In this document: piece by piece, positions 9,852 through 54,465 of the stretch
Position numbering within the stretch: position 1 is the stretch's first letter
Layout of the letters: each line of letters begins with the position of its first letter
NCBI RefSeq assembly: GCF_000002075.1
Contig: NW_004797827.1
Span: 352,964-416,963, forward strand
Reading direction: 5' to 3'
DNA from: Aplysia californica
Lineage: Eukaryota
Length of the DNA: 64,000 bases
Position numbers and translations under genes: made by a program
The notes under the pieces: generated by a model
The model's input: the letters and a program-made list of their open reading frames with translations, nothing else
Told to the model about the DNA's origin: nothing
The model's database searches: none

Positions 9852-12800
9852 CTGGTGAGAAAGAAAGTCACAAGAACATGCTGTAGATCACGGGCATGTG
9901 CAATGTTAACGTAATTATTAATATCTTCCATAGTAAAGAAGGTGCTTTCTCTGTAAAACTTGAAAAATTAAGCCAAAAAATTTTTTTTTAAATAAAATAA
10001 AGCAAACCTGACAAACGTTGAACATTTACTGTGTGAAGAAGAGTCTCAGAGCACAAATTGTGTTATCTAACATTCACTTGTTTGCAGTTGGTCAAAAAGT
10101 CTACAATTCCAGTTAAACCCTTTCAAAAGCTTTAGTATTAGCAAGAGTCATGTTTAGTTTTAGTAAGTAAGAGTTTTACGGCGCTGGCAACTGCATAAAG
10201 TCATAGGAGCGCGCTAGTAAGAGTCTAACAGCACTTGCAACACAATAAGGTCATATAAATGCCGAAGATTAGAGGTGTTACTAGCGAGTAACAAACACCA
10301 AAAAAAAATAACAGGAAAGATCAGGACAACTAATGTATGATAGGAAAGAATGAGCAAACAATACCAGAACACCGACCAACCACCCGTGCCGACTTACTGT
10401 AGTTTCGTTCCCTAAAACAGTTGTTCCGTAGCTGCCCGATATATTCCTCTTCCACAGCCCTTTCTATTCTGCGTAAATCGGATTTGAACTCCGCCCGAAA
10501 ATCGTCCTTCACGTAGTACGTCACTCGGAGGTTGGCAGTCGTCCTCTCAACTCTGTACTTCCTGCAGCCGCAAGCACAACACGAAATACATGATAGCAAC
10601 GACACTTATGCTAGACATTCAGGGCATTAAAAAAAACAAAAAGAAGAACACGAGTGTACAGCAACTTGTGCTGTGTTAATAAAAGCATATTTGTTCTTTT
10701 TTGTTTTAGTTGGCGTCTTACGGCACTTGCAACACAATAAGGTCATATAAGTGCCGAAGATTAGGTGTTAGAAGAGAGAAACAAACCAAAAAAGAAGGAG
10801 GAGAGATAAGGACGACAGATGTTTGATAAGAAAGAAGGAGCAAACTGCATCACAGCATCCCAGAACCTCCCACTCATAAATGATGTATAAAACAACTTTT
10901 GCTGTAATTTCTCCGGTAAATTAAATATCTTTCAGCTGGATTCAAAAGGTATAATTGAATAGACGATAAGAACGAAATAAAAATTAAATAAATGAAAGTA
11001 AACACAAAACGCACAAAACTACTGGATTAAAAGGGCAGGTCAACCCTCTGTGAATCCTAACACTGATTCTCTTCAAACTGTTCACTTTTTCTGTCCAACA
11101 TTGCACCAACACATAGAGTGGCCCTGTTGAATGTGCAGGCTCAGGGAATCAATCATGTTGGTTACAAATTAAACAAATAGAAGTAATATGAACAAAGTTA
11201 TATGTGAGGCATCTTGGTGAAATCAGGCGCTCGTCAAAATAATTAAATCCAAGAAATCAGCATTTTTCGGCCAGTTTGGGATTTTTTCCCGAATTTTAGT
11301 TTTTTTTAGCTCAACACCTTGTATGTCCATTCAAAACACTTTTATGTGTGGATTGTACTGAAATACAATAATCAAAGGAACAAAAAAAATGTAACTTGGC
11401 AGTTTCTAAGGGCTCTTAAGCTATGGAAATCGTCAAACTTTGGCGGCCATTTTTTAGCTAATTTTACTTCTCAAACCAGGTGACCCCACCCCTCTCAATC
11501 ACAAATATCTCGACCTCTATTCAAGATAATGGATTTTTTTTTTCTCATCAAAAGCAAGGCAAATGAACAACCTTTAAGATGATACCAATAGCTCCATAGC
11601 CCCAAAAATTGACGAGCGCCTGATTCCACTGCGTCATGAGACATATAATTGCTGAAGATAAGTGTTACTATGGAGTAACATACAAAGAAAAGAAGGAGGA
11701 GAGATGTTATCAATCTAGGAGGAGGAGGAGGAGGAGAGATAAGGATGATAGATAGATGAGTGATAGAAAAAGAGGATCAAACTGCACCAGAGCACCCGCC
11801 GACCACCTAACAAAGAGTACACTCACTCTGTTCTCTGGAGATTGAAGACGGCGTCGCTCACCAAGAAGCTACTCAACATAGACAAGACAACAAGGAGAAG
11901 AATGGGAGCCAACTGGAAAAACAAGGTGAGGCCACTCTGAAAAGAAAATTTTCAAAAGAAATAAATCAACGGCTGCAGTAATTAACAAAAAGCAATTTGT
12001 TCTAAACACTTTGTTCAAAATCCAAAAGCCCTGGTTTTTTAACTGACTTTTCCTCAGTAACAGTTTTACGGCACTTGCAACACAATAAAGTCATGTGAGC
12101 GCCAGAAGATTAGAGGAGTCACAAGAGAGTAACAAACATAAAAAAGAAGAAGGGGAGATAAGGACGATAGATGTTTGAGCGAGCAAACCACACCAGAGCA
12201 CCCGCCAACCTCCCATAGTAAGACTTTTACAACTCTCACAACACAATAAGGTCATATTTATAAATGCCGAAGATTAGAAGTGTAACAAGAGAATAACATA
12301 AACAAAAAAGGAGGAGGAGAGATAAGGGCAATAGATGTTTGACAGGAAAGAAGGAGCAAACCAAACCAGAGCACCCGCCAACCAACCACTAATTAAGAGT
12401 TTTACAGCTCTTGCAACACAATAAGGTCACATAAGCGTAAAAAATTAGAAGTGTTACAAGAGAGTAGCAAACACACAAAAAAAAAGAAGGAGGAAAAGAT
12501 AAGGATGATGGATGTTTGATAGGAAAGAAGGAGCAAACCACATCAGAGCACCGGCCAACCGCCCATTTTCCTGAATTGTAAAGTGACCTAATTTACAGTG
12601 CAAAATAGAAAGACAATTTCCAAATGAACTTTTAGAATGAGACTAAACATCAATGCCTGAGGTATTTTTTAAGTTTTAGTAAAAGTTTTACTGCACTTGC
12701 AACACAATAAGGTCATATAAGTGCCGAAGATTTTAGAGGTGTTACAAGAGAGTAACAAAAATTTAAAAAGAAGGAGGGGAGATGGAGACAATAGATTTTT

Positions 12801-15800
12801 TATGGGAAAGAAGGAGCAAACCACACCAGAGGACCCGCCAACCACCCATGCCTGTTGTACAATTGTCAGTGAATTTGGTGAACGCACAGGAAGAGAATTC
12901 TCCGTCTTCCTTTCCAAATACTTTCTTATTTAAGTAACCAATGAAGAATAACTGCCGCAACAAAAGTAAACAAACAATTTCCAGTTACAATTCCATTACA
13001 ATTTCCAGCTCAACTCTCCACCAACAAAGATCTTACTTCCAGCTCAACTCTCCACCAACAAAGATCTTACTTCTAGCTCAACTCTCCACCAACAAAGATC
13101 TTACTTCTAGCTCAACTCTCCACCAACAAAGACCTTACTTCTAGCTCAACTCTCCACCAACAAAGATCTTACTTCTGACTGCTGTGGCTCTCTGTACGTG
13201 TAGTACGTCCTCCGGGCGTGGTGGTGATGCTGACGCCTGTGTACATTGCCTGGCAGAACAGAAATTTTATACTGTTAACACATTACACCCTAAGGGCCTG
13301 GACGGGAAGTCCATCGTTAGATCCTAAGCAAGGGGAAAGAACCCACCTCCCGTGAATACAAGCCTTTAAAAAACACATTTTAAAAATACTAAACAAATTC
13401 CAAAAATCCTGAAAAAATAAAAGTTCAAAGGAAAACTGAATGTAGTTTCAGAAAAATATAACTTTATATATGCGCAAACTGTTGGAAATGTTGTAACTTT
13501 AGTTCAATCGGTGTGTCCGACTCGTCACTCTCACTCTCAGCCTCGCGGTCGGGCCCTAGATCTAAATTCTATAATTTCTCCGTCTGATCAATCGGAATCG
13601 CCCCTAACTCTTCCTACAACGTTTTCATCAAAATCTGAGCCATCTGATTTGTCACATGCTCGTTTTTGCTCAAATCCATCGTTATTTCCGTTTTCGAACT
13701 CAATTGTGTCGCTTATCAACAAGTCGAGGCACTTTCGAAGTGTCGGTAACGCCATCGCACTTCGATCAGCTCTAATATTAAAACTACTGGCCCGAAAAAT
13801 TTCGTTTCGGTATCAACGAAAGAAGAAACTTTTTGCTATACTATGCAAATCAAAATCCCGGCCCCAGAGTCTCGTCAAGGCGAGACTTTCGTTTCTAAAG
13901 ACGCTGGGTCGGCGCAGGTGGTTCCGGGCGAGTCAGGGTGGAGCGCGCAAGGGAATTCGCGGGCGATCTCGGGCGAGTTAGGGTGTAATGTGTTAAGTAT
14001 GCATTTTGTCGCTTTTAAGGATAAGCGGGCTAACCCGGATTTCGGGGGCTTCCAGAAATCTTGATCAACACCAATAGTGGACATTGCCCTACCTATAGGA
14101 AAAGTGTTAATTCATTGGTGTGTACATTTGTTTGGTTTATAGAGAAAACTCTCCTTGTCTTTTAAAGAAACTGAACATGGGGCAACACCTTTACCTTCGA
14201 TTTTCTCAAAACAGCATTTTTCGGGATAGCCCCCCTTGTGCTTAAAAGCGACCATATATCATCAACAAGCTGTTAAGAAGCCCAGAGAGCAAATTTTAAT
14301 CAAAATTTTGCTCACTCATAATATAAAATTTTTTCCCCCACTCTCCATTTTGAATTTCTGATCTGAGGTTTCTTATTCTTCCTTGTCCTCGATGACAGCA
14401 GCTAAACAGTCAGTCCGATGTCGCGCACAAACTGTGCAGTCCGCTTCAAATCTAAGAGACCGCCATCGAGCTTTCTCTCAAGAGGAGTCACATTCTGCCA
14501 CGTCTGTGTACGAAGGGTGGCATAGAGCGGGCAGTGCCAAAGGATATGGTTGGCATCCTCTTGGTCGTGTCCACATTCGCAGACCGCGGACTCTCCCACT
14601 TTTAATTTAATGTGCATATGGTGTTTGAGTCTGTTGTGGCCACAACGGCGTCAAAAGATTGTGACCTGGTCTGCTCTATTTAGCATGTAGTAGGGGTCAG
14701 TCTGTTGTGATTAGGGTGGGATTGTTTTTCAATATCAGACGTTATGATCCAAATGTACAATCTATGTGGAATGTATGTAAATAACTGAAACTTTTTCAAT
14801 ATTTTCCAATTCTATATTCATTCCTGGTTATTTTAATACATCATTTGACTAGGTGCAAAAATATTTTTTAAATTTTCACCAAAGATGATTAATCTGTAAT
14901 TTTCAAATTTCATCCCCATTCAAGCAAAATTGTGCTGCATAATAGCCTCTTACAGGAACCAAAGTTGAAAAATATACAAATAAATAAAATAGATGTATTC
15001 TACAAATCATACTGAAAACTTCAGTGTATAATATGTTGATATTTATACTAATCTGTGGCCCCAAAGCCCTATGAACTGCGCACTAGACATCACCTCATTT
15101 CGACCTCCCGAAAAAAATTAGTCCACAAGCGCCCAAAATAATGCGTAGCGAATGAGGTTTTTTTAAAAACTAACTCACCTGAGGGAAAGCCTCCACCAAA
15201 GAACATATTGAACAGTTCCTCTGGTGAGATGTCACCTGCAGAAGAAAGGACAAAACCAAGACACAGTCAAGTCCTGATCAAAATAAAATACCAGACAGCC
15301 AGTCACTTAAACCTTTCCAACGTGAAGGGAAAAATAGTTTTCTGCAAAGAACCGACCATTACAAAAAACAAACAAACGTGGGAACGTGTTAACAGTCCGT
15401 CAAATTGTGTCTCCTCAGTCATTGGATATAGGCAATACACAGTGTGTGTGTGAGTGTGTGTGTGAGTGTGTGAGTGCGTGTGTATGTGCGCGTGTGTATG
15501 CGTGCGCGCAGGTGCATGTGTACGTGTGTGTAAACCAAATTTCCCCACATGGATCAATTGAAGTGGAAGTAACATAGATTGTAAAGCACATAGAGGTTGC
15601 TGTTGAGAATGAATTTGGGATATACAAATTATTATTATCATTATTATCACGCTAAAATACTAATTTTAATCTGAAGCCAGAGTTATGGTCTCGTCAGTCT
15701 CAATACTACCCTGTAGACTTTGCATTGACCAAAATGACTCACAAACGGTCAGGAAGGTTACACAGTTCTTCAGTACTTAGGTACGGTCAAATCTGCTTTA

Positions 15801-18800
15801 ACTCTATCTCCATGGGGGGTAAGGTAAACCCACTATGCCGGTGCGTTTTTAGTACAAAATCTAAAATTGACATATATTTAGTTAGTTTTAGTAGAGGTTT
15901 TACGACGCTCGCAACTGCATAAGGTCATATGAGCGCCAGAAGATTAGAGGTGTTACAAGAGACTAACGAACATAAAAAAGAAGAAGGGGAGATAAGGACG
16001 TTAGATGCTTGATAGGAAAGAAGAAGCAAACCACACCAGAGCACCCGCCAACCGCCCACATTGACATATATATGTCACTAAACTGGTCATTAAATATAAA
16101 AACCTGAACCCATTTCGATAGTTCTTCATCTACTGAAAAATAGAAAAATAATTTGACGGCGAAGTCGTCGTAAAGGAATGCGCCCAAGCCGCTGACGGCT
16201 TACCGGCACGGCGGTTCCAAATACGAGCCGCTGGGAGCAGCTTGCCGGAGATAAAGAGTTAACGACCACCTGTCCTAGACAACCATCTGTACAAACAACC
16301 ACCTCCCATTAGCCTCCCTTGCATTTTCAAAATATACCGATATTGTCCAAGACATCCACCTATCTAAGACACAACCATTTTCCTCCTGTCTGAATAATGG
16401 GTAGCACGTCTGGGACAATTTCGACTGCACCCACCGTCAAAACCATGGGAGAAGTCGCCGTGGTCGTGGGAGGGTCTGCTCGGTTGCATCTCAGGACCGT
16501 AGAGGTCATACTGCCGCCTCTTCTCCTTGTCGCTGAGTATACTGTACGCCTTGCCAATGGCTGGTGAACACAATAATGCCAAATACTATAATTGTGTAGA
16601 TACACATCACGTGGAAAAAGACTGATGAAAGACTTCATTTGTGTATACATGGAAAAAGACTGAAAGACTTCATTTGTGTATTATTCCTTTCATATGCAGT
16701 TTGGATTTTAAACATGTGATTCATCTTCAATATTTTACATATTTTCTCATTCTTGGTAGCATAAAAATCTCCAGGGGTTCAATGCATGCCAACAGCTCCA
16801 AAAAAAAAAGTGAACTGAAACAAATATCTACTTTGTAACGGTCTAATGGAAGGAATTCGGGAAAATATTTGAGAGTATTTAGAATATACCCTAAATTCAC
16901 ATCTTATGTCTTCAATTCCAAAATACTTAATCTGGACTATATTTCAAAATACTACACCGTATGCCCTCCTTTGCAAATTATTATCAAAATTACGTAGAAG
17001 TATAAAGAGGGGTAACAAAACAGACTAATACTTGTACCAACCTTTGAAAGCTTCGGTAGCACCTGGAGCTTTATTCTTGTCAGGGTGCATCTGTAAGGCC
17101 AGTTTGCGATACGCCTTTTTCAACTCAGAGTCCGAGAACTCCTTGGAAAGCTCCAGAACTTCGTAGACATCCTTGCATTCATTGATTCTGAGAGAGAGAA
17201 CAGGCATATATATGTTAAAAGAAAGTTGATATGGAAGCAAATGTATTATGATGTGTGAAAAGAGGATCAAAGATGGTAGTTGCGCAAAGCAAAAAACTCA
17301 AACCATAGAAAAGAATAAGAGCAAAATACTACGTTGTTTACTTTTTTAGGAAGAGTTTTACGGCACCTGCAACACAATAAGGTCATATAAGGGTCGAAGA
17401 TAAGAGGTGTTACAAGTGAGTAACAAACACAAAATGAAGGTGATAAGGACGATAAACAGATGTCTGATAAAAAGAAAGACGGAGCAAACCACACCAGAGC
17501 ACCGCCAACCACTCAAATACTATGCTGTTGTGTACAAGAGAGTAATTAACACAAAAGAGGAGGAGATAAAGATGACAGATATTTGACAGAAGAGAAGGAG
17601 CAAACCACACCAGAGTACCCACCAACCACCCACTTAGCCTCTTAAAGATGGAAAAAGTGTGCACTAGCGACAAAAAGGTTGACAAGAGGTGATCTAAATC
17701 TTTTTAAAAGACACTGGCTATAACAGTCAGTAAGTGAAGATACTGGATTAAAGTAAAACAAGAACTGGTGAAGGATGATACAAGATAATAGTTGTTCTCC
17801 ATTATATAACCAAAAAAAGATTTTTTTTTAAAGAATCAAGTGGAAGAGAAGCCCACAGACATCATAACAACTGACTGCTGACAAAAGAAGGCTAGTTAGT
17901 TTTAGTAAGAGTTTTACGGCACTTGCAACACAATAAGGTCATATAAGTGCCGAAGATTAGAGGTGTTACAAGAGAGTAGAGTAACAAATACAAAAAAGAA
18001 GGAGAGATAACGACGATAGACGTTTGATAGGAAAGAAGTACAAGCAAACCACATCACAGCACCCGCCAACCACCCACAAGAAGGCTAGGCAGATGGACAA
18101 AAAAATAAAGGAGAGTAAAGACATTGTGTCATATATTATACCACCATTCAACCACTTGCAATTAAATATTAATTATACGCATTAATATATTTCAGAATAA
18201 ATCGAAAGTTAAAAGTGCTTGAAAAACAATTGCACAAAAGAATACAGATTATTTTACAAAGAAAAAGAAATGCAGCCAGCAAATAAAATCAGAAGTCTTT
18301 TTTACCACATTCATCCTTCCTTTCACCAAACCATTGGAAATACCAAACGTCTGCAAAAATTTATCAAAATGTTTTTTATCCGTATATAACTCACAATACT
18401 GAGAAACATGTTCCAAGTCTTCTATGTTTCAATACAATTTTAAGGCAAAGCAGAAAGGAAGTGGCACACATAAACACTAAAATTAAGAGACAATTTTCCA
18501 AGAGGGAGCACTGTGTATACCTTTTTACAGATGCCAGCTGATCAGCTGTATAATCCGCATGTTTGTTTTCCTTGTCAGCCTCGTCACCGCCTTTACTGTG
18601 GCTATGCTTTCTGTGCCTTGGCTGGGAAGATTCCGATTCTTTCTCCCTTTGAGCCTCTCCATTAGAAGAAAGTTTATCTAATGAATCAAGCAAATCTGAA
18701 AATAAAATAAGATGAATATAAATAATCATGCACTCACAATTGTCTATAATATTTTATATAATTAATTAAAAAAGAAAAAACAATAACAATGGAGAGGGAG

Positions 18801-21800
18801 ACACATACCCTAGATGCTGAGTATCGAGTTGCAAACTGAAGGTCATCTTTTATGTGCGACACAAGACACCTAAAAATAGGCACACACAGTAGCGTCTCCT
18901 GCTGCCGTGAACAATGTGTCAATGAATTTTGTTTGTAAACACTGTTAGATATAAAGTTTATTGGGTGGGTAAATAAAAGCTTTCACTTTCTTTCAAAGTC
19001 CACAAAAGTATTTAATTTAAGAGCAGTAAGCCCAATAGCGTTGCGAAAAATCAAATTTCTAAGAAAAAGATGTATTTCTATCTTTACCGGAAATCCAAAA
19101 GACCAAACTTCTGCCTTTCAATTCCATGATTGAATGCAAACTGACTTGACCTTTCACTTTCACCCACATATTTTGCTGTCTTGCCCATGACAAAATACTA
19201 AGGGAGGGGAACACAGTTTCATAGCAATGATGATTATTCATTTTGTGCCACTAGTTGTGGAAGCAGTAGTGCTAGTAGAACAACATTGGCACTGACAAAA
19301 ATGACAATTCACAATAATAACAGATTAGGGACAAATATGCTGTGGGTCGTTTTCAGAACTTTAAAAAAACAAAAAACAAAGGAGCCTAATTTGATAATTC
19401 AAAAAAAAAAAAAACGTAACACTTGAGATTTTCCTAGACATTCCAGTCCTAATGGTTGGCACCAAGGACAGGACACAACCCTGCCTGGGATTAACTCTGG
19501 CCCTGTGGATAAGCATTGGGTGCCAAGTTCCATTTTAGTAAGGTATAGTTCAGTTAAGTTTTAGTAAGGTTTCATGGCCCTCGCAGTTGTGGATGCCGCT
19601 GAAGGAAATGCTGATTTGGGGACATTTTGCCCACCGACAGCAACGACTCAACTTCCAGACCATCACAGAGCCTCCTAGACAATATCTCGCGATGAGTGCG
19701 AAAGGGCCTTTGATGTAGCAATTTCCGTCAGTGAGGATGTCTGCATGATCGGGCTCCAACCTGGTTTTGGAGACACCACCTCCGACATGATTATAATGAT
19801 GAAACAGGTTGTTCCTCCAGAAGACAGCACTCATGTACAATTGCGGTCATGTTTAAAGATACTGGTTTTGACCCTACCAACGATTACTTCTGGTTCTAAA
19901 CGATTACTTTTTGATGCGCGTGCCGATAGGCCTCTATGGAGAGATAGCCAAACAAACTAATTGTAAAATATGTAGCCCGATAATATATTTAGATCTAGAT
20001 CTAGCTGCTTCTCTGTAGGCTAAGCATTTTCCTGTGAACGGTCAATGAGATGAGAGGGGTCTTTCTGGGAGTGTATCTGGTGCTTTTTCGGTAGTTCCCA
20101 CCCCCCTTATTTGAGCCTAGATCTACATCTAATCTAGATCTATATGTTTCATGCGCGGCCAGCTAAGATATCAAACCTAACAACTGCAAAACATCAAATT
20201 CCTGAAACCACCTTATTTTTATCTGTCTCCGTGGTTTTATGCATGGAAATGGCTATTCTCATCCGGGGTGAGAATAGAAAAACGATCTACCTCTCACCCC
20301 GGGTGAGACTTGCCAGCGTAGGCTATTCTCACCCGGTGCGAAACAAGACCTGCTTTTCCTCATTTTGGAATACTGTCTATCGGTTTGGATGATCAAATTG
20401 ATAAAAGCCAAGAAAAAATTACGTTATAGCACAAACGCTGTGTCTACGTACACGGTAACCGTGTACATAGCCTCGGGGTCTACGTACACGGTAACCGTGT
20501 ACGTAGCCTCGGGGTCTACGTACAAGGTAACCGGGCCTGTAGCCTCAGGGTCTACGTACACGGTAACCGGAAGGTTCAAGAGATAGTTCACTCAGCCACT
20601 ATCTCTCTCTCTCTCTCTCTCTCTTCTCTCACTCTCTGTCTCAATCTCTCTCTCTATCTCTTTTATTTCCCCTCCCCCCCCTCTCTCTCTCTCTCTTCTC
20701 TCACTCTCTGTCTCAATCTCTTTCTCTCTGTCTCAATCTCTCTCTGTCTCAATCTCTCTCTCTCTCTCTTCTATCACTCTCTCTCNNNNNNNNNNNNNNN
20801 NNNNNNNNNNNNNNNNNNNNNNNNNNNNNNNNNNNNNNNNNNNNNNNNNNNNNNNNNNNNNNNNNNNNNNNNNNNNNNNNNNNNNNNNNNNNNNNNNNNN
20901 NNNNNNNNNNNNNNNNNNNNNNNNNNNNNNNNNNNNNNNNNNNNNNNNNNNNNNNNNNNNNNNTTCCCATCTCTCACTCTATCTCTTTTACTCCCCCCCC
21001 TCTCTCTCTATTCTCTCAATCTGTCTCAATCTGTCNNNNNNNNNNNNNNNNNNNNNNNNNNNNNNNNNNNNNNNNNNNNNNNNNNNNNNNNNNNNNNNNN
21101 NNNNNNNNNNNNNNNNNNNNNNNNNNNNNNNNNNNNNNNNNNNNNNNNNNNNNNNNNNNNNNNNNNNNNNNNNNNNNNNNNNNNNNNNNNNNNNNNNNNN
21201 NNNNNNNNNNNNNNNNNNNNNNNNNNNNNNNNNNNNNNNNNNNNNNNNNNNNNNNNNNNNNNNNNNNNNNNNNNNNNNNNNNNNNNNNNNNNNNNNNNNN
21301 NNNNNNNNNNNNNNNNNNNNNNNNNNNNNNNNNNNNNNNNNNNNNNNNNNNNNNNNNNNNNNNNNNNNNNNNNNNNNNNNNNNNNNNNNNNNNNNNNNNN
21401 NNNNNNNNNNNNNNNNNNNNNNNNNNNNNNNNNNNNNNNNNNNNNNNNNNNNNTGTAAGTGTGGTGTGTGTAAAGATAGTATTAGTGGGTGGTTGGTGGG
21501 TACTCTTGTGTGGTCTGCTCCTTCTTTCCTATTCAACATCTGTCATCCTTATCTTTCTTTTCCTTCTTTTTGTGTTTGTTACTCTCTTGTAACACTAACA
21601 CCTCTAATCTTCGGCACTTATATGAACTTATTGTGTTGCAAGTTCTAACTCTTACGAAAACAAAAGATAGCTTTTGGTATGAACATGGCGCTTTGGCGGC
21701 AAGCGTAAGTGTATGCCTGGTACCGAAGCTCGATCTAATTTCGCTTTCGTTACCATCCAGATAAATCATTGTCCTGTGCTTTCACTTGCTGAAAAAAAAA

Positions 21801-24588: not shown

Positions 24589-25934
24589 TTTGATGACGGC
24601 TGTACATGAACCAACAACAGTTGTTGCAAGGGCGAATTTCATTGGCGAACTCTCAAGTAAGAATGAAATATGCTTTTAAACCGCATTTGCGTATTTGATG
24701 AGTTCTAGAAATTATTAACCTTATCAAGCATTTTATTTCCATTTAATATTTATGGAGAAAATCCTAGTATAATAGAAAAATACACAATAATCTAAATGCG
24801 AAAATAATTTTACACGTTTACAATGGCCATTCCATAGACTTGTACTATAGTAATTAGCCTATGGCGCACAAGTCTTGAACGACTCTGAGACCTCAGGTCA
24901 CTGGTTGGCTGGAGAAAAAGAAAAAAGAGCTCCACATAAATTGGGTTGCCATTGCTCCTGGCAGTCTAATAATGAAGGAAGACGTAATCAATTATTTTAT
25001 TATGCTCTGCGTTATTTCGGTATTTGTCATGTAACTTGTCTTCCCGTAATAACAATTATCTATAAATACGATATGAGAAATTGTTTCTGACGAGTTATGT
25101 CAAACTTTAGGCCTTTTTCAAAAGAAACTAAGTTTGAGTCAATTAAAATTGGGCAAGGGGTGTACAGGCTACATAAATGAAATTATTGTAAGGTCCATGA
25201 TAAGGCTGTATTACAAGTACAATTTTAAAGGGTAGGCCTATAATACTGACCTAGCGAAGCAATGAAGGGGGGGGGGGGGATTCATTTCCAATTCTGTGAC
25301 AAAAACCCTTTCGCTTTCAGGATAAAAGTTACATTTCCACAAATGGCTCGAGTTCTAGAACGCTCCGTTAATATATATCCAACTCAGCTAACGCTGTTTT
25401 GCGGGGGGGGGGGGGGGGGGGGGTTCTGAGACGCTCAATTAAATATTCAGATCATTTCATTAATAAATTAGCACACTCAAAGAAGACTTTTGTTAGTTTT
25501 AATACCATTTTAACGGCCCTTTGTAATACAGATAGGTCATTTGGTGATGTCTGTCCTGAAGATTTGAGGTACGTGTAATTGTGAGAGAGGAACGTACAAA
25601 GAAAAGAGGAGGGTTAACTATAGGACCATATTATTTTTACGATAGATTTAAAAAAAGACGGAGCAATTTTAAACCACCATATTATAATATATATTGCCAA
25701 ATACCCACGATGAAAGTAGATAGATGTACGTTATAGGACCTATACTGGAGCTTATATAAATAAAATATTATATTTTTTGTAGCAATCATAATTGACTGCT
25801 TTGCTACGTTGCAGGGATCCTCGATCATCGCAACACCACGAATGTTTTGTTCTTGAGTGCCCCCATATGACATACGATCGCAGGATATTTAGAGTGAAGT
25901 TGGGTTGTTGTTTTTTGTTTGGTTTTTTTTTAGG

Positions 25935-26140
25935 GAGGGGGCGATTTTTCACGCCCCCATCGACACAATTCAGCCCATTGAGGAGGTGGGCTTCAGAACT
26001 TGCCTGTCAGGGCAACCCGGTCTGAGAGGGATGATTTTAAACAGCCCTGCAGAAAGACCGTCGAGATACTCAATAAAAGTTTCTTCTCACCCGGGAATCG
26101 AACTCATGTGTCTAGGATTCGACAATGGAGCACCTAAATA
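25935..26140 (-). mobile_element. tRNA-derived SINE (related copy on + at about 56460-56660)
   Basis: B-box-like gagttcgattccc on minus strand; shared tgacaggca...gaagcccacctcct body. Confidence 0.55.
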
Positions 26141-27218
26141 GAACGGCAGACGTTGGTTTAAAGGGGAGATCTCGAGTATCTGCAGTTACAGTACCATCAG
26201 CTCTCATTATACAGAACTTCTCTTTTCTCGTCTTCTTCTTCTTCCAAGAAACATTTCGGAAAAGGCAAAAAAGAGCTTTATCTTTTTTTTATATAGCCCG
26301 CGGATCACTACAGACATTGGGGCACGCAAATAGATAGGTTCCAGAACCTTATATTTTTTTGTTTCAAATGTCATGTAGGTATTTTTAAGCCACCATCGAT
26401 ACAATTTAGATAATTTAGGAGGCTCGTTTCCTACTCTGCCTGACAGTGACGGGGCAATTCGGGCTGAATTAAGATCAGTTAACATCCTAGCAGAAAGACC
26501 GAGATTATAATTATGTACTCGACAAAGATTCTCATCACTCGATCTTGGGTCTCCTACGCGCGACAGCCAAACATATCTATACTGCTAACCGCAACACCAC
26601 GGACGCATTGTTCATGGTTTCAGGAAGCAGCATCCCTGCATTCCGGACATGTCCATTGATGCTCCGTTGCTCTCTCCAAAATGTCACCGAGGGTGTTTTT
26701 ACAACTGTAATTGTCCCAGTGTATATCTGGTTGAACGTTCTTCTGTTCTTTCCTGCAAGGATGCCATATTTTTCGCTTCCTTTTTGTATTCCCAAAAGCA
26801 TCATCCTCTCCACAGCAGTCCTGGCCCTGGCCTCTATCTTATTAACCAGCTGGTGAGAGAGACATTTCAGGATCTCGACCTTGTCTGGTTGAACTGTGCT
26901 GTCAAGTGTCAAACGAGGTGGCCTCACCAGCCAGTCTGTCTGCTTTTTCAGTTGAGATACCCGTCGTATAACAATAAACTAAATGCGGGACAAAGAGGTT
27001 GTAAGGTCTGCTTTGCCCCCCCCCCCCAACCGCCCCTTTCCCGATCTAGCGTACCTTGCTTCCAAAAGGATCTGGAGTTTTAGTCTTAGTACACGACATG
27101 TATTTAACAATAATTTAGAGTTATACCTGCTGCGCTTCACCCCCCCCCCCCCCCCACCTCTTCCCCTTCCACAAGACGTACCGGTACATGAGACGCTTGA
27201 GATCCACGCCCTCCTCCT

Positions 27219-28180: not shown

Positions 28181-28259
28181 TACATTTGTACCTGCTAAAA
28201 ATGTGTTTTGAGACAGTGTTTGTGATGTAATGTTTAGGCTCTTCCCCTGGGGAAGTTAA

Positions 28260-28598: not shown

Positions 28599-28708
28599 TT
28601 AATGTTATCGAGTATCTCCATCTCTCTGCTGGGACACTGTATCTCGGTCTGGGTTGATACTTACAGTACAGGCGACAGAGTCGAGGCAGCCTGTCTTCTA
28701 AAATAGTA

Positions 28709-30508: not shown

Positions 30509-30539
30509 CTGTGAACGTGAACAGAGGACACTGTTAAAA

Positions 30540-30580
<41 letters not shown>

Positions 30581-37465: not shown

Positions 37466-38141
37466 AGTGTCACTGCATCTTGCCCTCCCACAGTTCTTAC
37501 ACCTCTCACACTGAATAGGTTTACTTGAGCTCATTCAAGTAATTACTCTACTTTAAGTTTGAGCATTAATTTTGTCTTTCACGTTTATTATGTGAATCAT
37601 TACACTCAGACTGGTTCATGACAGTCGATATTCTGGTTCTAGGCCTTTTCCCAGGCTCAAAACAAGATTCATTTTTATATAGTTTATATATATGCAGGCG
37701 AATATGATGATGGTAAAATATATAAATAAGTCGCAGAAGACCACAGTGCGCCTCCACTTTCTGTACGTAATCAAGACTTACTTGAAATTATCTTCCAAAC
37801 CCTCAAACTGGTATGAAATAACCTTGCTTTGATAAATTGATGGTTTTTATTTCAACATTCTAGGGTCCAACAGTATAATAATAGTGCGTGTCTCGCGAAA
37901 ATGGGCTTCTGTCCCGATCACGCGGAAAGCTCCTCTTTTAAAAAAATTCTGAGTTGAGACCCATGTGTTTAGTTATATTATATATAGATCTAGTCTAGAC
38001 GTCTAGATCTATATAGGCTATAGTATAGTGCTATAGGAGGCGTAGATCTAATCTATATTGGTTTTTTTTACCTATATTTGTATATTGCAGGTTGCTCCGG
38101 TTGACTTGTGCTGAACTTCAAAAGGAAAATTTAAGCAAACT

Positions 38142-44092
<5,951 letters not shown>

Positions 44093-44393
44093 AATGTTCC
44101 TCAGGCTATACTCCGTGGGTTGGGAGGGTGATGATGGCACTGGGCATTTTTTGGGCAATGTTTATTTTCACAGCTCTCAGCTGTGCGTAGCAGCAAAAAC
44201 AGTAATTATATACACTGACTACTGTATCCATTATGTCTACAACAATGTGTAAGTCTTACTCTGCCGTTGGTGTACATGTGTGTGCGTGAGTGTGTGTGTG
44301 TGTGTGTGTGAATTGCTGTCGCCTGGTTATCGATGGTGTGTTTGTATTATTATGCTCCAACTGTGGAACTGGAAGAAATAGGTCAACTCGTCT

Positions 44394-45513
44394 GTGGGTG
44401 GTTGGCGGGTGCTCTGGTGTGGTTTGCTCCTTCCTTCCTATAAAAAATCTATTGTTGTTGCAAGTGCTGTAAAACTCTTACTAAAACTTTAAAAATCTTT
44501 GGCACTTATATGACTTTGTTGTGTTGCAAGTGCTGTAAAACTCTTACTAAAAACTTTTGAAAAATCTTCAGCACTTATAGATCTATGGCCTCATTGTGTT
44601 GCAAGTGCCGTAAAACTCTTACTAAAACTAAAACTAAGGACAGTCACACGGCTGGAGCATAACACCATGGGTATGAATTTCGAGTGTGTGTGTGTGTATT
44701 GGTGTGTTCTTTGCTGTTCGATCGGCGAGTCGGACCGGATCATTCATGATGTATGTTTGCCTTCAGAATCAGCACATTGATGGTCATCCTTCCTGAAACA
44801 ATGTCCGAAAGGTCTTTTGGTAATAGAACCGGTGTGTATGTGTGTGTGTGTGATCATGTGTTATTTGCTTCAAATGTCCACAGTCGCATTCATTTATCAA
44901 AAAAAAATATTGTAACCATCATCTCCCGTCATATCGGTTATATGTTGTTCTTGTCATTAAAGAGTCAAGTGAACTCAGTAATAATGAGTTTGGTTGTTGT
45001 TAGATTGGTAGCCTACTACTAACTACAGTTTTTGTATGATGGCACAACACACATTGGTGCTGGTGGTTGGAGAATGCTGCGTGGATGGTTGGCAGGTGCT
45101 CTGGTGTGGTTTGATCCTTCTTTCCTATCAAACATCTTCATCTATCGTCCTTGTCTCTCCTCCTTTTTTTTGTGTGTTTGTTACTCTCTAGTAACACCTC
45201 TAATCTTCTGCACTTATATGACCTTATTGTGTTGTGGTGCAAATGCCGTAAAACTCTCACTAAAACAACACACTCTGGTGCTGATGGTTGGAGAATGCAG
45301 CTTGTTAGTAGGTCTTGTTGCTTCTCTTTGGTCTTATTCTTTTCTCTTCCCCCTGGGTGGTTGGCGGGTGCTCAAGTGTGGTTTGCTCCTTCTCTCCTAT
45401 CCTAACATCTATCGTCCTTATCCTTTCTCTTTCTTTTTTGTGTATGTTACTTCCTTGTAATACTTCCATTCTTCGGCATTTCTATGACCTTAATGTGTTG
45501 CAAGTGCCGTAAA
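44394..45513 (+). mobile_element. Family A copies in the UBE2I 3' UTR (44394-44636 with tripled tail, 45081-45266, 45355-45513)
   Basis: Consensus match. Confidence 0.8.
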
Positions 45514-45632
45514 AAGTATTCTCTTCCCCTTGCTTTTGTCTGTCTTAGTTTTTCCCCAGCACTGAATGGAGTTCAATTTGGAGGTCCAACGTCTTTGATT
45601 TCATTTAAGTAAAAGTGCTTACAATGTGAACG

Positions 45633-45638
45633 AATAAA
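45633..45638 (+). promoter_or_regulatory. Candidate UBE2I polyadenylation signal
   Basis: First AATAAA I found after the UBE2I stop, about 1.55 kb downstream. Confidence 0.5.
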
Positions 45639-45920
45639 CAAAGTGTGTTCACCTTCACTCCGCCATCCACCAACTGTCTGAATTGTATGGTCCTTAATTT
45701 AACTAATTAATTCAGTATTCACCCCCGCCATACTACCAGAGGTACACACTGCACACAACACCCAACTGGTTGGCTACTGAATAATCTTTCTCTCACGAGA
45801 AATACATAGAAAGAGAGGAGACTCTCGACTCTGGGTCTGAGTGCATGTGCATACGTACTGTACATCACCCACAAAAGACGCTTTTCAAAATCAGATCGCA
45901 CAGTAAAATCATGTATTCCT

Positions 45921-46102
45921 TTAGTTTTAATAAGTGTTTTACGGCACTAGCAACACGATATGTCATATAAGTGCCGAAGATTAGAAGTGTTACAAGAGAG
46001 TAACAAACACACAAAAGAAGGAGGGGAGATGAAGACGATAGATTTTTTTGTAGGAAAGAATAAAAAAGGAGCAAACCACATCAGAGCACCCACCAACCAC
46101 CC
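45921..46102 (-). mobile_element. Family A copy (intergenic)
   Basis: Consensus match. Confidence 0.8.
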
Positions 46103-46742
46103 ACAAAGAGACAAGACTCTCGACTCTGAATGCATGGAATGTACATCGCCCACAAAAGACACTTTTCTTAAACTCAGATTGCACCGTAGAATCATGTAAT
46201 ATTCCTTGACATTGGGCAGTCAGCAAAGGCTATACTCATACTGTACAATACACCAGATGAACCCCGTTGAACCACCAGCCCCGCTGTTCTGCCAACTTCA
46301 TACGCGTCACAGGTGGCGGTACACAACCGAGATTTGACTGTAGACCTAAGTCTGTCCCCGTCGCTTTATGCAAGGAAAAATATCAAAATATGCAAACTGA
46401 GCCCAAAAAAATGTGAAATTATGCGATTCTGTTAATTTTAAAACAAAGAATGATAAAGAAAAATAATCAGAAATAATGCAAAAAATGGGTTGAATTATGA
46501 AGGGTGCATAAAACCACGGGGAAAGATAAGTATGGGTGGTGAGCATTGTAAAGTAAACCTCAAGATCACCTCATTTTGAGACTTTAACCTGGGTTATATC
46601 CATACCGCCGTCCAGCAAGTCACCAATTAATTGTTGTTATTGTTTTGTTTTGTTTTTTAAGAAAAGAAAAGCACATCGACACAAAGTCGTACATATGTAT
46701 CATTACAGTGCGAATGATTGATAAACAATAGAAACAACAGAG

Positions 46743-46934
46743 TGGGTGGTTGGTGGGTGCTCTGGTGTGGTCTGCTTCCTTTTTCCTATCAAACATCTAT
46801 CGTCTGTATCTCCCCTCCTTCTTTTTTGTGTTTGTTACTCTCTTGTAACACCTCTAATCTTCTGGCGCTCATATGACCTTATGCAGTTGCGAGTGCCGTA
46901 AAACCTGTACTAAAACTAAGCTAAAAAAAAAACA
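46743..46934 (+). mobile_element. Family A copy with TSD agaaacaacagag
   Basis: Direct repeat at 46730-46742 and 46935-46947. Confidence 0.88.
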
Positions 46935-49775: not shown

Positions 49776-50592
49776 ATGGCGAACGAAGTTACACATGCTC
49801 CCAATAAAACATGGGAATTGAGTTTATACGAGCTGCACAGAACGCCACAAGATGCAATTACGGATAACACAGAAATAGCAGTTTCACCGAGAAGTCTCCA
49901 TAGTGAGCTCATGTGCCCAATTTGTTTGGATATGTTGAAGAGTACAATGACAACAAAGGAATGTTTACACCGATTTTGCCAAGAGTGTATTATTACAGCC
50001 CTTCGTAGTGGAAATAAAGAGTGCCCTACGTGCAGGAAAAAACTTGTTTCGAAACGTTCATTGCGACCTGACCCTAATTTTGATGCACTGATATCTAAAA
50101 TTTACCCAAGCAGAGACGAATATGAAGCTCACCAGGAAAGATTGATGGCAAAACTCAACAAACACCACAACACAGCTGCCCTCACCAACAGTATTGAAGA
50201 AGGTTTGCGGCTTCAGGCCTTGAATCGGGCACAACGGGTGAGAAAACAAAATCAGAATACTGAAATGGGTGCTCGGAGAAATGATGACGATCCAAATGAT
50301 GATAATTTGTCAGAGTCTCAGGGTTTGGCAGATAACGATGAGATGTCAAATCAGTCGAACGATGCACTGCAGCACAAGCCAATAATGAAGCATCAGTTCT
50401 CAGATGATTCGAGTGCGGAAAACTCCACAGGTGAAGCTAGCATGTCAGAGCAACACTCAAGGGGTAGTCCAGAACCTGCCATACCCCAACTGATCAATGA
50501 GATTGAACTGATTTTCAAGCCCCATCCTCAAGACTGCGATGGTGATCCATCGTCACAGACCCGTTACATCAAGACCACAGGAAATGCCACTG
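49776..50592 (+). CDS. RNF2: RING1/RNF2 coding exon 1 (RING finger)
   Basis: Long ORF ending TGNAT G|gtacgt. Confidence 0.95.
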
Positions 50593-53500
50593 GTACGTAA
50601 TTTAGTAGTAGAATCTAGTAGTATTGAGTATTGTTAACACATTGTTTTTTGTAAGACAAGGTAACAAGGTTATGGGGAAGGATTTCCATAACGAGTGAAC
50701 ACCCCAACAAACACCCTAATCAGCTAATAATCCAAGCCCTTGTAGTGACTTGTAGCCCTAGCCCCAACCCTGACTCTCGAAAACTTAACCCTAGCCCTAG
50801 CCCTAGTGTCTACGTACACGGTAACCGGGCACCTAGTCTCAATATCTACGTACACGGTAACCGGGCACCTAGTCTCAGTTTCTATCATGTACACGGTAAC
50901 CGGGCACCTAGATCTAGACTTAGTCTCAGTATCTACGTACACGGTAAACCGGAATGAAAATAAATCAATATATTGTCTTGTGCTGTCACTTGCTGAAAAT
51001 AAAGAAAGTCATACAAGAAGCGTCTTGTCGGGCTCACCATCGTGACCGGTCAGTGAACCTGTGCGTGTGCATCACATTGTGAGTACCGGTTGGGGGTCAC
51101 CAAAGTTCATTCAAACCCTATGCGCTGCGAAGTATAGAGCTCCGGAATGGGGGGATTATTTATTTTTTTAAAGGTACAGTCGAGGGAGGGGTGGGGATGA
51201 AGGAAACACCGGATGACAAAAACTGAACTTTGAGTTTTGAACTGCCCGGTTACCGTACGTGACACTGAGACTACAGGCCCGGTTGCCGGTTACCGTGTAC
51301 GTAGATATTGAGGCTACATGCCCGGTTACCGTGTACATGACACTGAGACTACGTGCCCGGTTGCCGGTTACCGTAGACCCTCCATTTCTTGTATTCTCAA
51401 TCTTACTTTTACCGCTTCTCTTCTAGCCCTAACCCTAACCTTTAGATTCCATAGTGGTCACTTGTTACAGAATTTTATACCTCCCAAGGTGACGTAGACT
51501 AGGGTCTTTACTTTTACACTTTAAGTCGTTACTGTTACACCACAAAGTTGTTAACTATTGCTTCTTTACTCCAAGACCACAATTCAATGCTTTAATTATA
51601 TTTGCTCTGGTAACACTTTGGAGTTACACGCTGGTACTGAGAGGAAGGGCAGCCAATAGAGAATGGTTTCTGTGCCAAGTGCACTTTTCCATGTAAATGT
51701 TGTTGGGGTCAAGGCCAAGGGGTCAGCTACCTCTGTCATTTTTCTGGTTAAATTGATTGAAAATTCTTATAATATAATAAAACTTTTCAACATACTGTGA
51801 TCTCTGTAACTTTTGTTATTCAAACGTACCAGAGTCAATGATTCAAAATTCGGATTTTGAGATCTGATTATAAAAACTTTATCTTTACCCGAAGTGGGCT
51901 ATCTCTATGCTGCATGGTGATTTTTTTGTATAAAAGTTGTGAGGACAAAAATCAATTTGTAGAAAAATGATGCTTGAAAAAAACACAACCAAAGTGCATT
52001 GCATGGGTCTGAGTAGGAAATTCTCAGAAAAGCCAGAGCGGTAAATTTTTACTTTCCACTCCGGCACGCAGACGCACTGCTTTTGAGGTCAAACTGCAGT
52101 ATAGTATTTGCTGCAGATCACACACATAGCCACCAAAACTGTCGCCAATTAATTATTTTCAAGAAAATTTCAATCTTAACTATGCAAAACATCAAGTAAC
52201 TGGGGTGTATTCCCCTCTGTAACTTGTAACCCAGATTTTTTTTCTTACTTGAAACCCCACGATTGGTCCAAAGAGCAGAAATTTCTACACTATTGCCTGG
52301 TGTGGTAAGTTCCATCATAAACCGTCAAATATTTTTAAAACAATTACTTTGCGATGGAAATTAAGTCAATATAAATTGTTTTCAGCGCATTGTAGTTTTG
52401 ATTTCAGTCTCAGCACTAGTGGGTGGTTGACGGGTGCTCTGGTGTGGTTTGCTCCTTCTTTCCTATCAAAATACCTATCGTCTTTGTCTCTCCTCCTTTT
52501 TTGTGTATGTAAACTCTCTTGTAACACATATCTATTCTTCGTCACTTATATGACCTTATTGTGTTGCAAGTGCCGTAAAACTCTCGTTAAAACTAAACTA
52601 AGTCTCAGCACTAAACTAAACCCAATGTTTTACTGTTTCAGTTGACCATTTGTCCAAGTACCTGGCCATCCGTTTGTCGATAGACACTTCAAGTGACTGC
52701 GATGAAGGTATGATCATGATAATGATGTTTTTATTTTATATTATTATTAGACTCGAACTAATTTTAGGGGTATCCGTGTTTTGCGTTTTATTTTCTCTCT
52801 CTGTTTCTGTTTTTTTTTCCTTGTTACCTTTCGAAATTGCTTTTTATTGAAATGCAAGGTTATTTTTGGAGAACAAAAATTATTGTTGTATAGCTTGTTT
52901 TTTTAAAAATTCTTATAGAAAAGAGTAAAAAAAAAGTCTGATCAGGCTTGACATTTTAATCTTTTTTGATAAATTATAATTCATAAAAAAATGTGTTAGG
53001 TGTTATTGACTTTGTTGTTCTTTTGTAAAGCTTTTTTTCTTTAGTATTTTTAAGAGAAATGTATTAATTTCTACTGCTGTACTTTAAGGTGTATCTTTTT
53101 TGGAAATATCCTGCCTTGTCTTGTATCAAATTTTGTATACTAATTTAGACCTTTTACAAATTTGTTGACATTACGATAAAGACTCGGTGTTTGGTTTGTG
53201 GATGCTCTGGTGTGGTTTGCTTTCTTCTTTCCTATCAAAGATCTGTCTTTATCTCGCCTTCTTCTTTTTTGTGTTTGTTACTCTCTAGTAACACCTCTAA
53301 TCTTCTGGCGCTCATATGACCTTATGCAGTTGCGAGTGCCGTAAAACTCTTACTAAAACTATAACTCTAATCTTCGGCACTTATATGACCTTATTGTGTT
53401 GCAATAATCTTACGAAAAAGGAAAAAACCTCTTTAATGTCCAGGTCTTTCTCCTTCACCCACGGCCATCTGTGTAAAATGTCCAGGTCTTTCTCCTTCAC

Positions 53501-54465
53501 CCACGGCCATCTGTTTAAAATGTCCAGGTCTTTCTCCTTCACCCACGGCCATCTGTGTAAAATGTCCAGGTCTTTCTCCTTCACCCACGGCCATCTGTGT
53601 AAAATGTCCAGGTCTTTCTCCTTCACTCACGGCCATCTGTGTAAAATGTCCAGGTCTTTCTCCTTCACCCACGGCCATCTGTGTAAAATGTCCAGGTCTT
53701 TCTCCTTCACCCACGGCCATCTGTGTAAAATGTCCAGGTCTTTCTCCTTCACCCACGGCCATCTGTGTAAAATGTCCAGGTCTTTCTCCTTCACCCACGG
53801 CCATCTGTGTAAGTTGTTCTTGGTCTATCCCTGCCTCTTTAAATTTAAATTGTTGGTGGTTGGCGGGTGCTCTGATGTGGTTTGCTCCTTCTTTCCTATC
53901 AAACATCTATCGTCCTAAATCTCCCCTCCTTCTTTTTTATGTTTGTTACTCTCTTGTAACTCATATAAATAATCTTCTGGCGCTCATATGACCTTATGCA
54001 GTTGCGAGCGCCGTAAAACCTCTACTAAAACAAACAAAATTTTCATTTCTTTTTTTTTTTTTTCAAGCGAGAGCGAAGTTTTCAAGGCTTTTACTTTTTT
54101 ATGTCTAAGTTCAAGTAGTATTCCAGACGCTCTATTTGTCTCTTCCTAATTGTTTTTTAAATTTATTACTATTATTGGTGAGGGACCCACTCTGGCTTTA
54201 AATTTCAGCTTCTTCACATTCTATCTGCACTGATACCAAATTTGTTCCTTTTAAAAAATATTTTCCAGAGGAAGTGTCGTCTGGCAGTCGGTTTGACATC
54301 TTCGTCGCGTCACCTCCCGGCCATTTTGTTCTGCTGAGTGGAACCACAAATCTGGAGCATGTGAAAGACAAGTACTGGAAAGTGAACAAACCCCTCGAGA
54401 TCTTCTACTCGGTGCGCAAGTCAGCGTCGCAGTCGACTGTGAAGAAAATGCATCCAGACAAATGA
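49776..54465 (+). CDS. RNF2: Polycomb PRC1 E3 ubiquitin ligase RING1/RING2 (Sce), join(49776..50592,52642..52707,54269..54465), 359 aa
   Basis: [15 protein letters not shown]...[25 protein letters not shown]...[34 protein letters not shown] domain; RAWUL-like C-terminus ([43 protein letters not shown]). Confidence 0.95.
50805..51378. mobile_element. Shortened foldback element (20436 family) in RING1 intron 1
   Basis: Inverted CTACGTACACGGTAACCGGG arrays flanking the same internal core. Confidence 0.75.
52419..52600 (+). mobile_element. Family A copy with TSD agtctcagcacta
   Basis: Direct repeat at 52406-52418 and 52601-52613. Confidence 0.9.
52642..52707 (+). CDS. RNF2: RING1/RNF2 coding exon 2
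   Basis: ttcag|[22 protein letters not shown], donor |gtatga. Confidence 0.9.
53197..54035 (+). mobile_element. Family A copies on both sides of the minisatellite (53197-53415, 53864-54035)
   Basis: Consensus match. Confidence 0.8.
53435..53812. repeat. 42-bp minisatellite x9 in RING1 intron 2
   Basis: aatgtccaggtctttctccttcacccacggccatctgtgtaa, near-identical units. Confidence 0.95.
54269..54465 (+). CDS. RNF2: RING1/RNF2 last coding exon
   Basis: tccag|[48 protein letters not shown]...DK*. Confidence 0.9.

Follow-up and report, generated by a model that had tools for sequence, protein, structure and literature searches.

The strand bias of family A, a short retroposon of Aplysia californica, is real. 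It was confirmed in the DNA where it had been noticed, a stretch of 64,000 nucleotides of contig NW_004797827.1 (positions 352,964 to 416,963, hereafter the window), and it extends beyond this stretch. In a sample of 84 gene spans outside the window, covering 875 kb, 173 copies were sense and 20 antisense (p = 1e-31), and the ratio was 151:19 when clusters were collapsed. The original prediction had set itself against a roughly 50:50 ratio; no such parity was found in these spans, and the sign of the bias is indeed opposite to the antisense bias of mammalian L1 and LTR elements.

The spans were divided into expression classes assigned by gene family, and the sense to antisense counts were 69:0 in housekeeping-type, 71:9 in motor, and 33:11 in tissue-restricted spans. 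Sense copies were the more numerous in 19 of 19 housekeeping genes with copies and in 22 of 23 motor genes. The sample left out P450 matches, mostly single-exon, and many kinesin, SLC6, and channel spans, and long spans entered it in part. The 236 kb of housekeeping-type spans contained the 69 sense copies at 2.93 per 10 kb, and 158 kb taken at arbitrary positions contained 14 copies on both strands, i.e., 0.44 per strand per 10 kb; the sense density is 6.6 times the random one. The same comparison for family C, a tRNA-headed SINE with the same tail, gave 0.30 versus 0.88 (Fisher p = 2e-5). Antisense A copies in housekeeping spans numbered zero, with 10.4 expected. The housekeeping sense copies are an excess, and not only what is left by antisense loss.

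In the window, gene calls were checked by translation and Pfam. The DNAJB12-like gene has a coding span of nine exons on the minus strand (9740..24590; DnaJ and DUF1977), and its introns hold 12 directly inserted A copies or fragments, all minus and sense (10154..18077; a tail at 10154, then 10215, 10699, 11641, 12048, 12216, 12394, 12671, 15882, 17342, 17530, and 17896), where about 11 had first been counted. Two more, in DNAJB12 orientation, lie downstream of it (217..2926, minus; at 217 and 2751). The FAM241-like gene (30152..32171, minus; DUF4605) has two coding exons and an intron without an A copy, and downstream of it a lone plus copy (27220-27398) lies among five minus copies (25493..29695; at 25493, 27545, 27845, 27996, and 29515). 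The UBE2I-like transcription unit, including its 3' UTR and with an approximate 5' end (36400..45660, plus; UQ_con), carries eight sense A copies or fragments in introns and 3' UTR (40918..45515, plus; at 40918, 42537, 43006, 43356, 44394, 44563, 45081, and 45354), and an intron also contains a sense family B retroposon with an A2-type tail and no tRNA head (41883..42270, plus). In RNA data, UBE2I appears as a spliced contig, and its 3' UTR ends near 45.6 kb, with AATAAA at 45,633; among the listed runs holding the stretch, none is on record as RNA. About 290 bp past this signal, an A copy runs opposite to UBE2I (45920..46104, minus). The introns of the RING1/2-like gene (coding span 49776..54465, plus; RING and RAWUL) hold four sense A copies or fragments (52419..54034, plus; at 52419, 53192, 53365, and 53853), and downstream of its AATAAA cluster five A and two D copies are all in RING1 orientation (55869..60826, plus). 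This orientation is kept by 11 of 11 A and D copies, for about 10 kb past the AATAAA sites. Two family B pieces in that downstream interval are minus.

Collectively, the profile search placed 24 of 24 direct A insertions of DNAJB12, UBE2I, and RING1 in sense, or 12 of 12 when copies less than 300 bp apart were merged (p = 5e-4). It had been claimed that copies downstream of DNAJB12 were minus, those downstream of FAM241 mostly minus, and those in UBE2I and RING1 all plus, and each statement held (5:1 at FAM241, 8/8 at UBE2I, and 4/4 at RING1). The opposite-orientation copies reported as intergenic at 27219 and 45921 were recovered outside mapped transcripts, the FAM241 3' end being unmapped. 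When 79 candidate ORFs flanking the window were scanned against Pfam, the only match was a STELLO-like minus-strand ORF downstream. A possible plus-strand gene was seen at the left end of the window.

The two plus-strand exceptions in DNAJB12 had been attributed to a nested DNA transposon, and both were confirmed as its passengers. A non-autonomous, DNA-transposon-like element with approximate ends occupies part of intron 1 (20340..23170) and carries one A copy antisense to DNAJB12 (21485..21665, plus) and a second one (22194..22373, plus), degraded here and also present in four other transposon copies (L202-L205). A first look for further copies of the transposon gave 1546 candidates. Of 30 that were retrieved, the window's own included, 29 have the first passenger at one and the same internal position, with the same flanks where these were inspected. 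Antisense A delivered in this way is tolerated in DNAJB12 intron 1 and at a second locus (C916), whose exon is presumably TMTC-like; no Pfam or PDB match was found for that exon, and four free A/B copies at the locus are oriented opposite to the transposon-borne antisense A. Over 10 loci, passenger orientation was concordant in two, discordant in two, and mixed in two, and four loci were without markers.

The 178-bp profile of family A describes a retroposon that lacks a tRNA head and ends in a stem-loop tail common to a young LINE with endonuclease, reverse transcriptase, and RNase H (EN-RT-RNase H). It is short, non-coding, dispersed, and of high copy number, as the count at arbitrary positions and 2780 first-look candidates indicate. 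Variable target duplications of about 11 bp were found in 100 of 211 full-length copies, with a length of 11-13 bp in 68 of these 100; a full-length intergenic A2 copy with a 13-bp duplication served as the reference (46742..46919, plus). Pairing in the tail stem covaries among 127 tails (G-C/A-T, 54/33; C-G/T-A, 62/43). Size and copy number, variable duplications, and the LINE-shared 3' end identify family A as a LINE-mobilised short retroposon, a SINE in the broad sense. A canonical tRNA-derived Pol III SINE was rejected, since the tRNA A and B boxes present in the C, S2, S7, and S12 consensus sequences were absent from those of families A, B, and D, and a scan of the window gave no Rfam match on any A copy. 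A ribozyme, retrozyme, or snoRNA origin was discarded for want of an Rfam match on family A, ribozyme families included, and a Helitron or MITE because of the variable ~11-bp duplications, the LINE tail, and the 5'-truncated copies. The same scan returned two weak miRNA matches, both on simple repeats.

The candidate partner LINE (L283) was found by an endonuclease search, and its 3' end matches the A2/B/C tail. As this tail follows ORF2 in the LINE, the polarity of family A is set independently of genes. Three LINE families from an RNase H search were rejected as partners because their tails differ. L1 ORF2 is not known to carry RNase H, whereas the partner ORF2 has it. The ORFs of 501 and 1226 aa (PF14529/PF03372, PF00078, and PF00075) agree with the I superfamily, i.e., an ORF1 and an ORF2 with APE, RT, and RNase H, and the protein probably belongs to the Nimb/I group, the Nimb label being taken from PMC11481361. 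The LINE is young and intact, with 40 of 40 scored 3' ends 99-100% identical, and its fragments were sense in 5 of 5 cases in four genes, even though their sense strand is A-rich.

In housekeeping and motor spans, headless families B and D share the bias (78:3; D 55:1, B 23:2), as do tail-only fragments (19:1). Outside tandem arrays, 20 tail-only fragments lay in these spans and 4 of them had a clear duplication, so the remainder may be eroded full copies. Family C, represented in the window at 32339..32760 (plus), served as the unbiased control, with 9:12 in the same genes. As 15 of its 31 full copies show the same 11-bp duplication mode and the tail is shared, the machinery alone is not strand-biased. 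A mild sense bias in the tRNA-headed S7 (45:19) and a weak one in S2 (26:22) indicate that the split by head is not absolute.

Age and sequence features were then compared with orientation. By rising divergence bin, family A gave 11:0, 40:2, 27:1, 27:1, and 3:2, with no age trend. The bias is already present in the least diverged bin (below 5%), which by the age test originally proposed favours targeting, but fast purifying selection is compatible with it as well. GTAAGA on the antisense strand was rejected as the explanation: copies without antisense GTAAG were equally biased (69:3, housekeeping and motor genes), and family C, whose antisense strand contains GTAAGT, a perfect donor, along with a stronger purine tract, gave 9:12. 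A target motif was rejected too, as base frequencies were flat across 74 duplications. Of the two mechanisms first suggested, selection against a purine-rich, GTAAGA-bearing antisense form was thus not supported, and strand-specific insertion appears the better supported. T-richness or composition is not required for the bias: when the T-richest 60 nt of a copy held T at less than 0.48, the counts were 68:5 for A, B, D, and tails and 4:10 for C, and family A gave 15:2 in the 18 spans nearly free of T/A skew. The ratio was 107:3 for spans of the two lowest CpG quartiles. Sense copies of housekeeping and motor spans showed an excess of A>G over T>C (64:125, expected share 0.20, p = 1e-5), as expected under germline transcription, and this excess was absent in tissue-restricted spans (11:44).

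We give about even chances to strand-specific insertion coupled to germline transcription as the source of the sense copies. The LINE protein would bind the 3' stem-loop, and reverse transcription would be primed at a nick on the transcribed strand of germline-active genes, leaving a sense copy with a ~11-bp duplication; a possible contact of the RNase H domain is the nascent RNA:DNA hybrid. The headless RNAs (A, B, D, and the LINE) may be made by Pol II and thereby meet this template-strand route, and, as an extra assumption, the Pol III family C may be copied in another compartment or stage. A sense insertion is a template-strand insertion, and in human cells transcription-coupled repair removes such L1 insertions, according to the available text of Servant, Streva, and Deininger (2017, PMC5717806), which predicts the opposite sign to our proposal.

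Alternatively, insertion into transcribed gene bodies may be strand-blind, with purifying selection removing antisense copies that bring an A-rich cleavage site, a cryptic exon, or a convergent Pol II promoter, a reading that we regard as possible but doubtful. In mammals, the bias is usually explained by selection against poly(A) signals (PMC1391917, as available), and strong selection may act without producing an age trend, as with ERV variants in the mouse (accessible part of PMC3446317). The A content of the richest 60-mers is highest in antisense A, B, and D, at 0.52-0.57 against 0.47 in C, and C is explained simply if harmless. At the internal A-run of antisense A, three runs gave 424, 396, and 495 reads with poly(T) loose ends, which may be real 3' ends; element reads in poly(A) runs came from both strands and many loci and were excluded from orientation counts. 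The non-SINE DNA of housekeeping spans likewise avoids A-rich 60-mers (56:376) and AATAAA (99:290) on the RNA strand, with the same gradient across gene classes as the bias. This background skew, however, has a mutational explanation, and those 99 AATAAA and 56 A-rich windows survive there, whereas antisense A contains neither AATAAA nor ATTAAA. On this reading, about 69 insertions must have been purged per 236 kb, and insertion must favour gene bodies in a way not seen for C; the reading also has to accommodate the equal bias of T-poor copies, headless tail fragments, and GTAAG-less copies, as well as the antisense passengers in DNAJB12 intron 1.

It is unlikely that insertion simply tracks replication-fork direction, with housekeeping genes co-oriented with forks from promoter-near origins. 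Orientation in the window does flip once near the divergent FAM241/UBE2I promoters, reaching intergenic DNA on both sides, and runs are long over 264 kb of the contig (16 runs for 59 copies versus 30 expected); a leading-strand preference is reported for human L1 (review PMC10030826, in the part available). Still, 69:0 over 19 genes would need near-perfect polarity in spans of 10-20 kb, and family C should be affected as well. Amplification of a modest initial sense preference through loss of inverted pairs, by double-stranded RNA or DNA instability, seems improbable: about three copies per 10 kb at a median divergence of 8% make such pairs likely, but such loss is itself directionless, and sense predominates in 41 of 42 housekeeping and motor genes. 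Moreover, antisense C persists although the ~55-nt tail duplex it offers equals that of a tail-only fragment, and the passengers persist among 12 opposite copies in DNAJB12. Least probable of all, sense copies might be positively retained as U-rich intronic elements aiding expression or splicing; their density climbs with gene T/A skew (rho 0.46), but copies decay across a broad divergence range, and tail-only and LINE fragments follow the rule without being U-rich.

The proposed transcription-coupled, strand-specific insertion of family A can be set beside known systems. Human L1 is likewise a non-LTR element whose gene orientation depends on transcription and was proposed to arise during TPRT rather than by later selection; in the available text, it avoids sense, far more weakly, whereas A has sense copies in excess (PMC5717806). 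Mouse introns also hold strand-biased retroelements, with SINE variants enriched in housekeeping genes, but the sense shares given are 33% (ERV), 36-42% (LINE), and 43-45% (SINE) (PMC3446317, accessible part), versus 90% for A overall and 100% in housekeeping-type spans. The gastropod LP-SINEs (Matetovici 2016, PMC4758252), as described in the portion available, resemble A as short retroposons with TSDs, tandem-repeat tails shared with tRNA SINEs, and no tRNA head. Their head is homologous to the ~70-bp 5' end of a Nimb-17 type LINE, and an internal promoter used by Pol II is a further mark of LP-SINEs. A C-run resembling, by eye, that of the LP head in the supplement opens both family B and the partner LINE; no significant alignment was obtained between the A, B, and D heads and the 5' UTRs of the two local LINEs tested (z 0.4-2.9). 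The term 'orientation' is absent from the main text of that paper. Bivalve tRNA SINEs also share tails with Nimb (I superfamily) and are enriched in or near genes in some species, but they are tRNA-headed and their accumulation was explained as survival bias; no gene-strand analysis was found in the accessible part of the article (PMC11481361). The openly searchable literature, i.e., without subscription papers and Repbase, gave no report, judged by titles and the opening lines of abstracts, of a sense-biased mollusc SINE or of template-strand insertion by I-group LINEs.

Whether insertion or selection generates retroelement orientation bias is a long-running question, and most studies of it concern mammals, which show a mild antisense bias. 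The A. californica genome offers a near-absolute bias of opposite sign, together with built-in controls: an unbiased sister family with the same tail, tail-only copies, DNA-transposon passengers, and a young, intact partner LINE suited to assay. The question thus becomes directly testable. In practice, the orientation of A, D, and B copies indicates on which strand a broadly expressed gene lies and how far it extends.

Translation and Pfam matches placed four genes in the window, DNAJB12-like and FAM241-like on the minus strand and UBE2I-like and RING1/2-like on the plus strand; UBE2I was represented by a spliced contig in the RNA data, with 3' UTR depth stopping at about 45.6 kb. The original prediction held that copies of family A, a short high-copy retroposon, lie almost always in the sense orientation of the host gene, and the counts bore this out: all 24 direct insertions in the three transcribed spans were sense (12 in DNAJB12, 8 in UBE2I and 4 in RING1), as were 12 of 12 clusters after the direct copies of these genes were collapsed (p = 5e-4). 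The two plus-strand copies in DNAJB12 intron 1 (21485 and 22194), previously set apart as lying inside a nested DNA transposon, are indeed its passengers; of 30 transposon copies fetched, 29 had the first at the same place, and the second was also present in 4 other copies. Beyond the RING1 AATAAA cluster, over about 10 kb, 11 of 11 copies of A or D followed RING1 orientation, up to a minus-strand STELLO-like ORF, and two pieces of B were opposite to it (B and D being other headless families). This ORF, which is 612 aa long and matches STELLO glycosyltransferase, is located about 5 kb past the right end of the window (fetched locus L191:5107-6942, minus strand).

Direct copies were concentrated in the 3' part of DNAJB12, UBE2I and RING1, and the promoter-proximal introns of these genes held none (18100-24500, 36400-40800 and 50600-52400, respectively). 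At 40905-41100, a copy sits at a UBE2I exon-intron junction, with the splice donor duplicated within the 11-bp target duplication and the element's own 5' end opening with a donor-like GT. At 60550-60906, A is nested in an oppositely oriented B, with a 10-bp duplication, and has the orientation of RING1 and not that of the host element. A direct duplication of about 33 bp accompanies the copy at 45081, and an unusually long, imperfect one of about 110 bp (45810-46207) encloses the antisense copy at 45920. Whole A copies, or tails by themselves, commonly formed head-to-tail arrays (12048-12848; fetched loci L102, L104 and L098), and a RING1 intron carries a 42-bp minisatellite of about nine units (53435-53812). 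At 2540-2700 (plus strand), an acceptor-like site with a short open frame may represent the terminal exon of a gene on that strand, in which case the copy at 217 would lie antisense to this gene.

Gene spans elsewhere in the genome were delimited with colinear Pfam matches to exons and then fetched (84 spans, 875 kb without N), and their classes were fixed by gene family before counting: housekeeping-type (CCT, cullin, adaptin), motors (kinesin, myosin) and tissue-restricted type (SLC6, ENaC/DEG, ligand-gated channels). The even split that would speak against a bias did not appear in this sample, as sense:antisense counts of A were 69:0, 71:9 and 33:11 by class, or 59:0, 66:8 and 26:11 after cluster collapse. 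Sense copies were favoured by 19 of 19, 22 of 23 and 9 of 15 genes, and those of the last class came mostly from two SLC6 genes (17:2 and 11:0 in an earlier profile count). CpG depletion is a proxy for germline gene-body methylation, and when spans were ranked by it, A counts were 107:3 in the two quartiles with the lowest CpG and 34:12 in the quartile with the highest. Arbitrary positions (twenty 10-kb pieces of large contigs, in which genes may be included) held 0.88 copies per 10 kb over both strands; by comparison with this density, housekeeping spans showed sense copies at 6.6 times the random per-strand rate and an antisense deficit, 0 against 10.4 expected.

Family A is 178 bp long, with a sharp start at GTGGGTGG, a pyrimidine-rich body (40% T) and then a 3' stem-loop and ACTAA-type tail; compensatory changes in the stem distinguish the tail variants A1 and A2. 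Of 211 full copies, 100 had target duplications, with a mode of 11 bp, and no target motif was found at them. The candidate partner LINE, L283 (G000:C6:2729600-2736900), is 6.3 kb long, has a 501-aa ORF1, a 1226-aa APE-RT-RNase H ORF2 and its own duplication, and ends in the A2 tail; the 40 best-scoring 3' ends of this type were 99-100% identical. The tail of a second LINE is related to those of A1 and D. Because LINE 3' ends carry A-type tails, the polarity of A is fixed, and A is a LINE-mobilised retroposon. L283 and L231/L281/L282 represent two I-group LINE families, both young and apparently intact, with similar 5' starts and different 3' tails; in the L283 copy, a segment of the 5' UTR is duplicated. 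Extrapolation from 14 copies in 158 kb, with a genome size of 927 Mb, would put A at some tens of thousands of copies. B (387 bp) and C (512 bp) have the tail of A, and D (136 bp) has its head. Pol III boxes are present in the tRNA-headed C, S2, S7 and S12 and absent from A, B and D, and A does not qualify as a canonical tRNA-SINE. In molluscs, tails shared between SINEs and Nimb elements have been described, as have headless LP-SINEs (PMC4758252; PMC11481361; PMC11203168). A is a possible LP-SINE; its head gave no significant alignment to the 5' UTRs of two local LINEs.

In the housekeeping and motor spans, sense:antisense counts were 55:1 for D, 23:2 for B and 19:1 for tail-only copies, and 9:12 for C, 19:11 for S2, 27:9 for S7 and 3:6 for S12. 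C and A have the same tail and the same modal duplication length of 11 bp, and the lack of bias in C indicates that tail-binding machinery alone does not impose one. The contrast was kept after T-richness matching (68:5 against 4:10 for C, p = 6e-7); the three most T-rich C copies were all sense. As one option, selection against the antisense form, with its purine tract and GTAAGA, had been proposed, and neither feature was supported as the cause: copies of A without antisense GTAAG were equally biased, and the unbiased C has antisense GTAAGT and the strongest pyrimidine tract. The bias of A2 was as strong as that of A1. Early presence of the bias had been proposed as a sign of targeting, and divergence bins, taken against one consensus and confounded with subfamily, showed no trend. 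Partner-LINE fragments in the spans were sense in 5 of 5 cases, though that strand is A-rich.

The transposon of DNAJB12 intron 1 belongs to a DNA-transposon-like family with tandem-repeat ends (20340-23170, 36800-37460 and 50797-51383; fetched loci L201-L230), whose fixed internal copy spreads A passively. The versions in UBE2I and RING1 introns are shorter or older and lack A, and 4 of 5 gene-located copies are co-oriented with the gene. The flanks of 10 passenger loci were concordant in 2, discordant in 2, mixed in 2 and empty in 4.

Non-SINE DNA of housekeeping spans showed a strong T skew on the RNA strand (A-rich 60-mers 56:376, AATAAA 99:290), which declines across the same gene classes as the bias of A; the 69:0 count is more extreme than this background ratio (p = 7e-5). 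An A>G excess was seen inside sense copies, which suggests that mutation accounts for at least part of the skew. In each of three sequencing runs, hundreds of poly(A) reads terminate in long stretches of T at the internal A-run on the antisense strand of A (46822); this may reflect oligo-dT priming or true cleavage.

As the origin of the bias we favour insertion that is primed on the template strand of genes transcribed in the germline, a reading to which we give about an even chance. RNA of A, B and D would then be made by Pol II, RNase H would participate in strand-specific insertion, and C would be handled at a different stage or compartment. The T skew of the background DNA, the read ends at the antisense A-run and the lack of bias in C count against this reading. 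Alternatively, strand-blind targeting of gene bodies might be followed by selection against antisense copies. Selection is able to remove these, but it cannot alone account for an excess of sense copies. Moreover, every feature suspected of harm (GTAAGA, purine tract, head promoter, tail) is either missing in at least one biased class or found in C, which shows no bias. Both points favour template-strand insertion, and selection seems a possible but rather unlikely account. It is improbable that replication-fork polarity sets the orientation, loss of inverted pairs is more doubtful still, and positive retention of sense copies is the least credible. Transcription-coupled repair in human cells is described as disfavouring sense L1 insertion (PMC5717806), a further point against the favoured reading. 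Transcription-linked targeting by other elements has also been described, there without orientation analysis (PMC7337890).

Retroelement orientation bias in genes as such is already known, but it is mild and antisense: the sense share is 33-45% in mouse (PMC3446317), and the bias is typically antisense in human (PMC1391917; PMC10030826), whereas that of A is sense. Our literature search found no report of this sense-orientation pattern. The orientation pattern of A is real, strong and unusual, and its mechanism, while only proposed, is testable.
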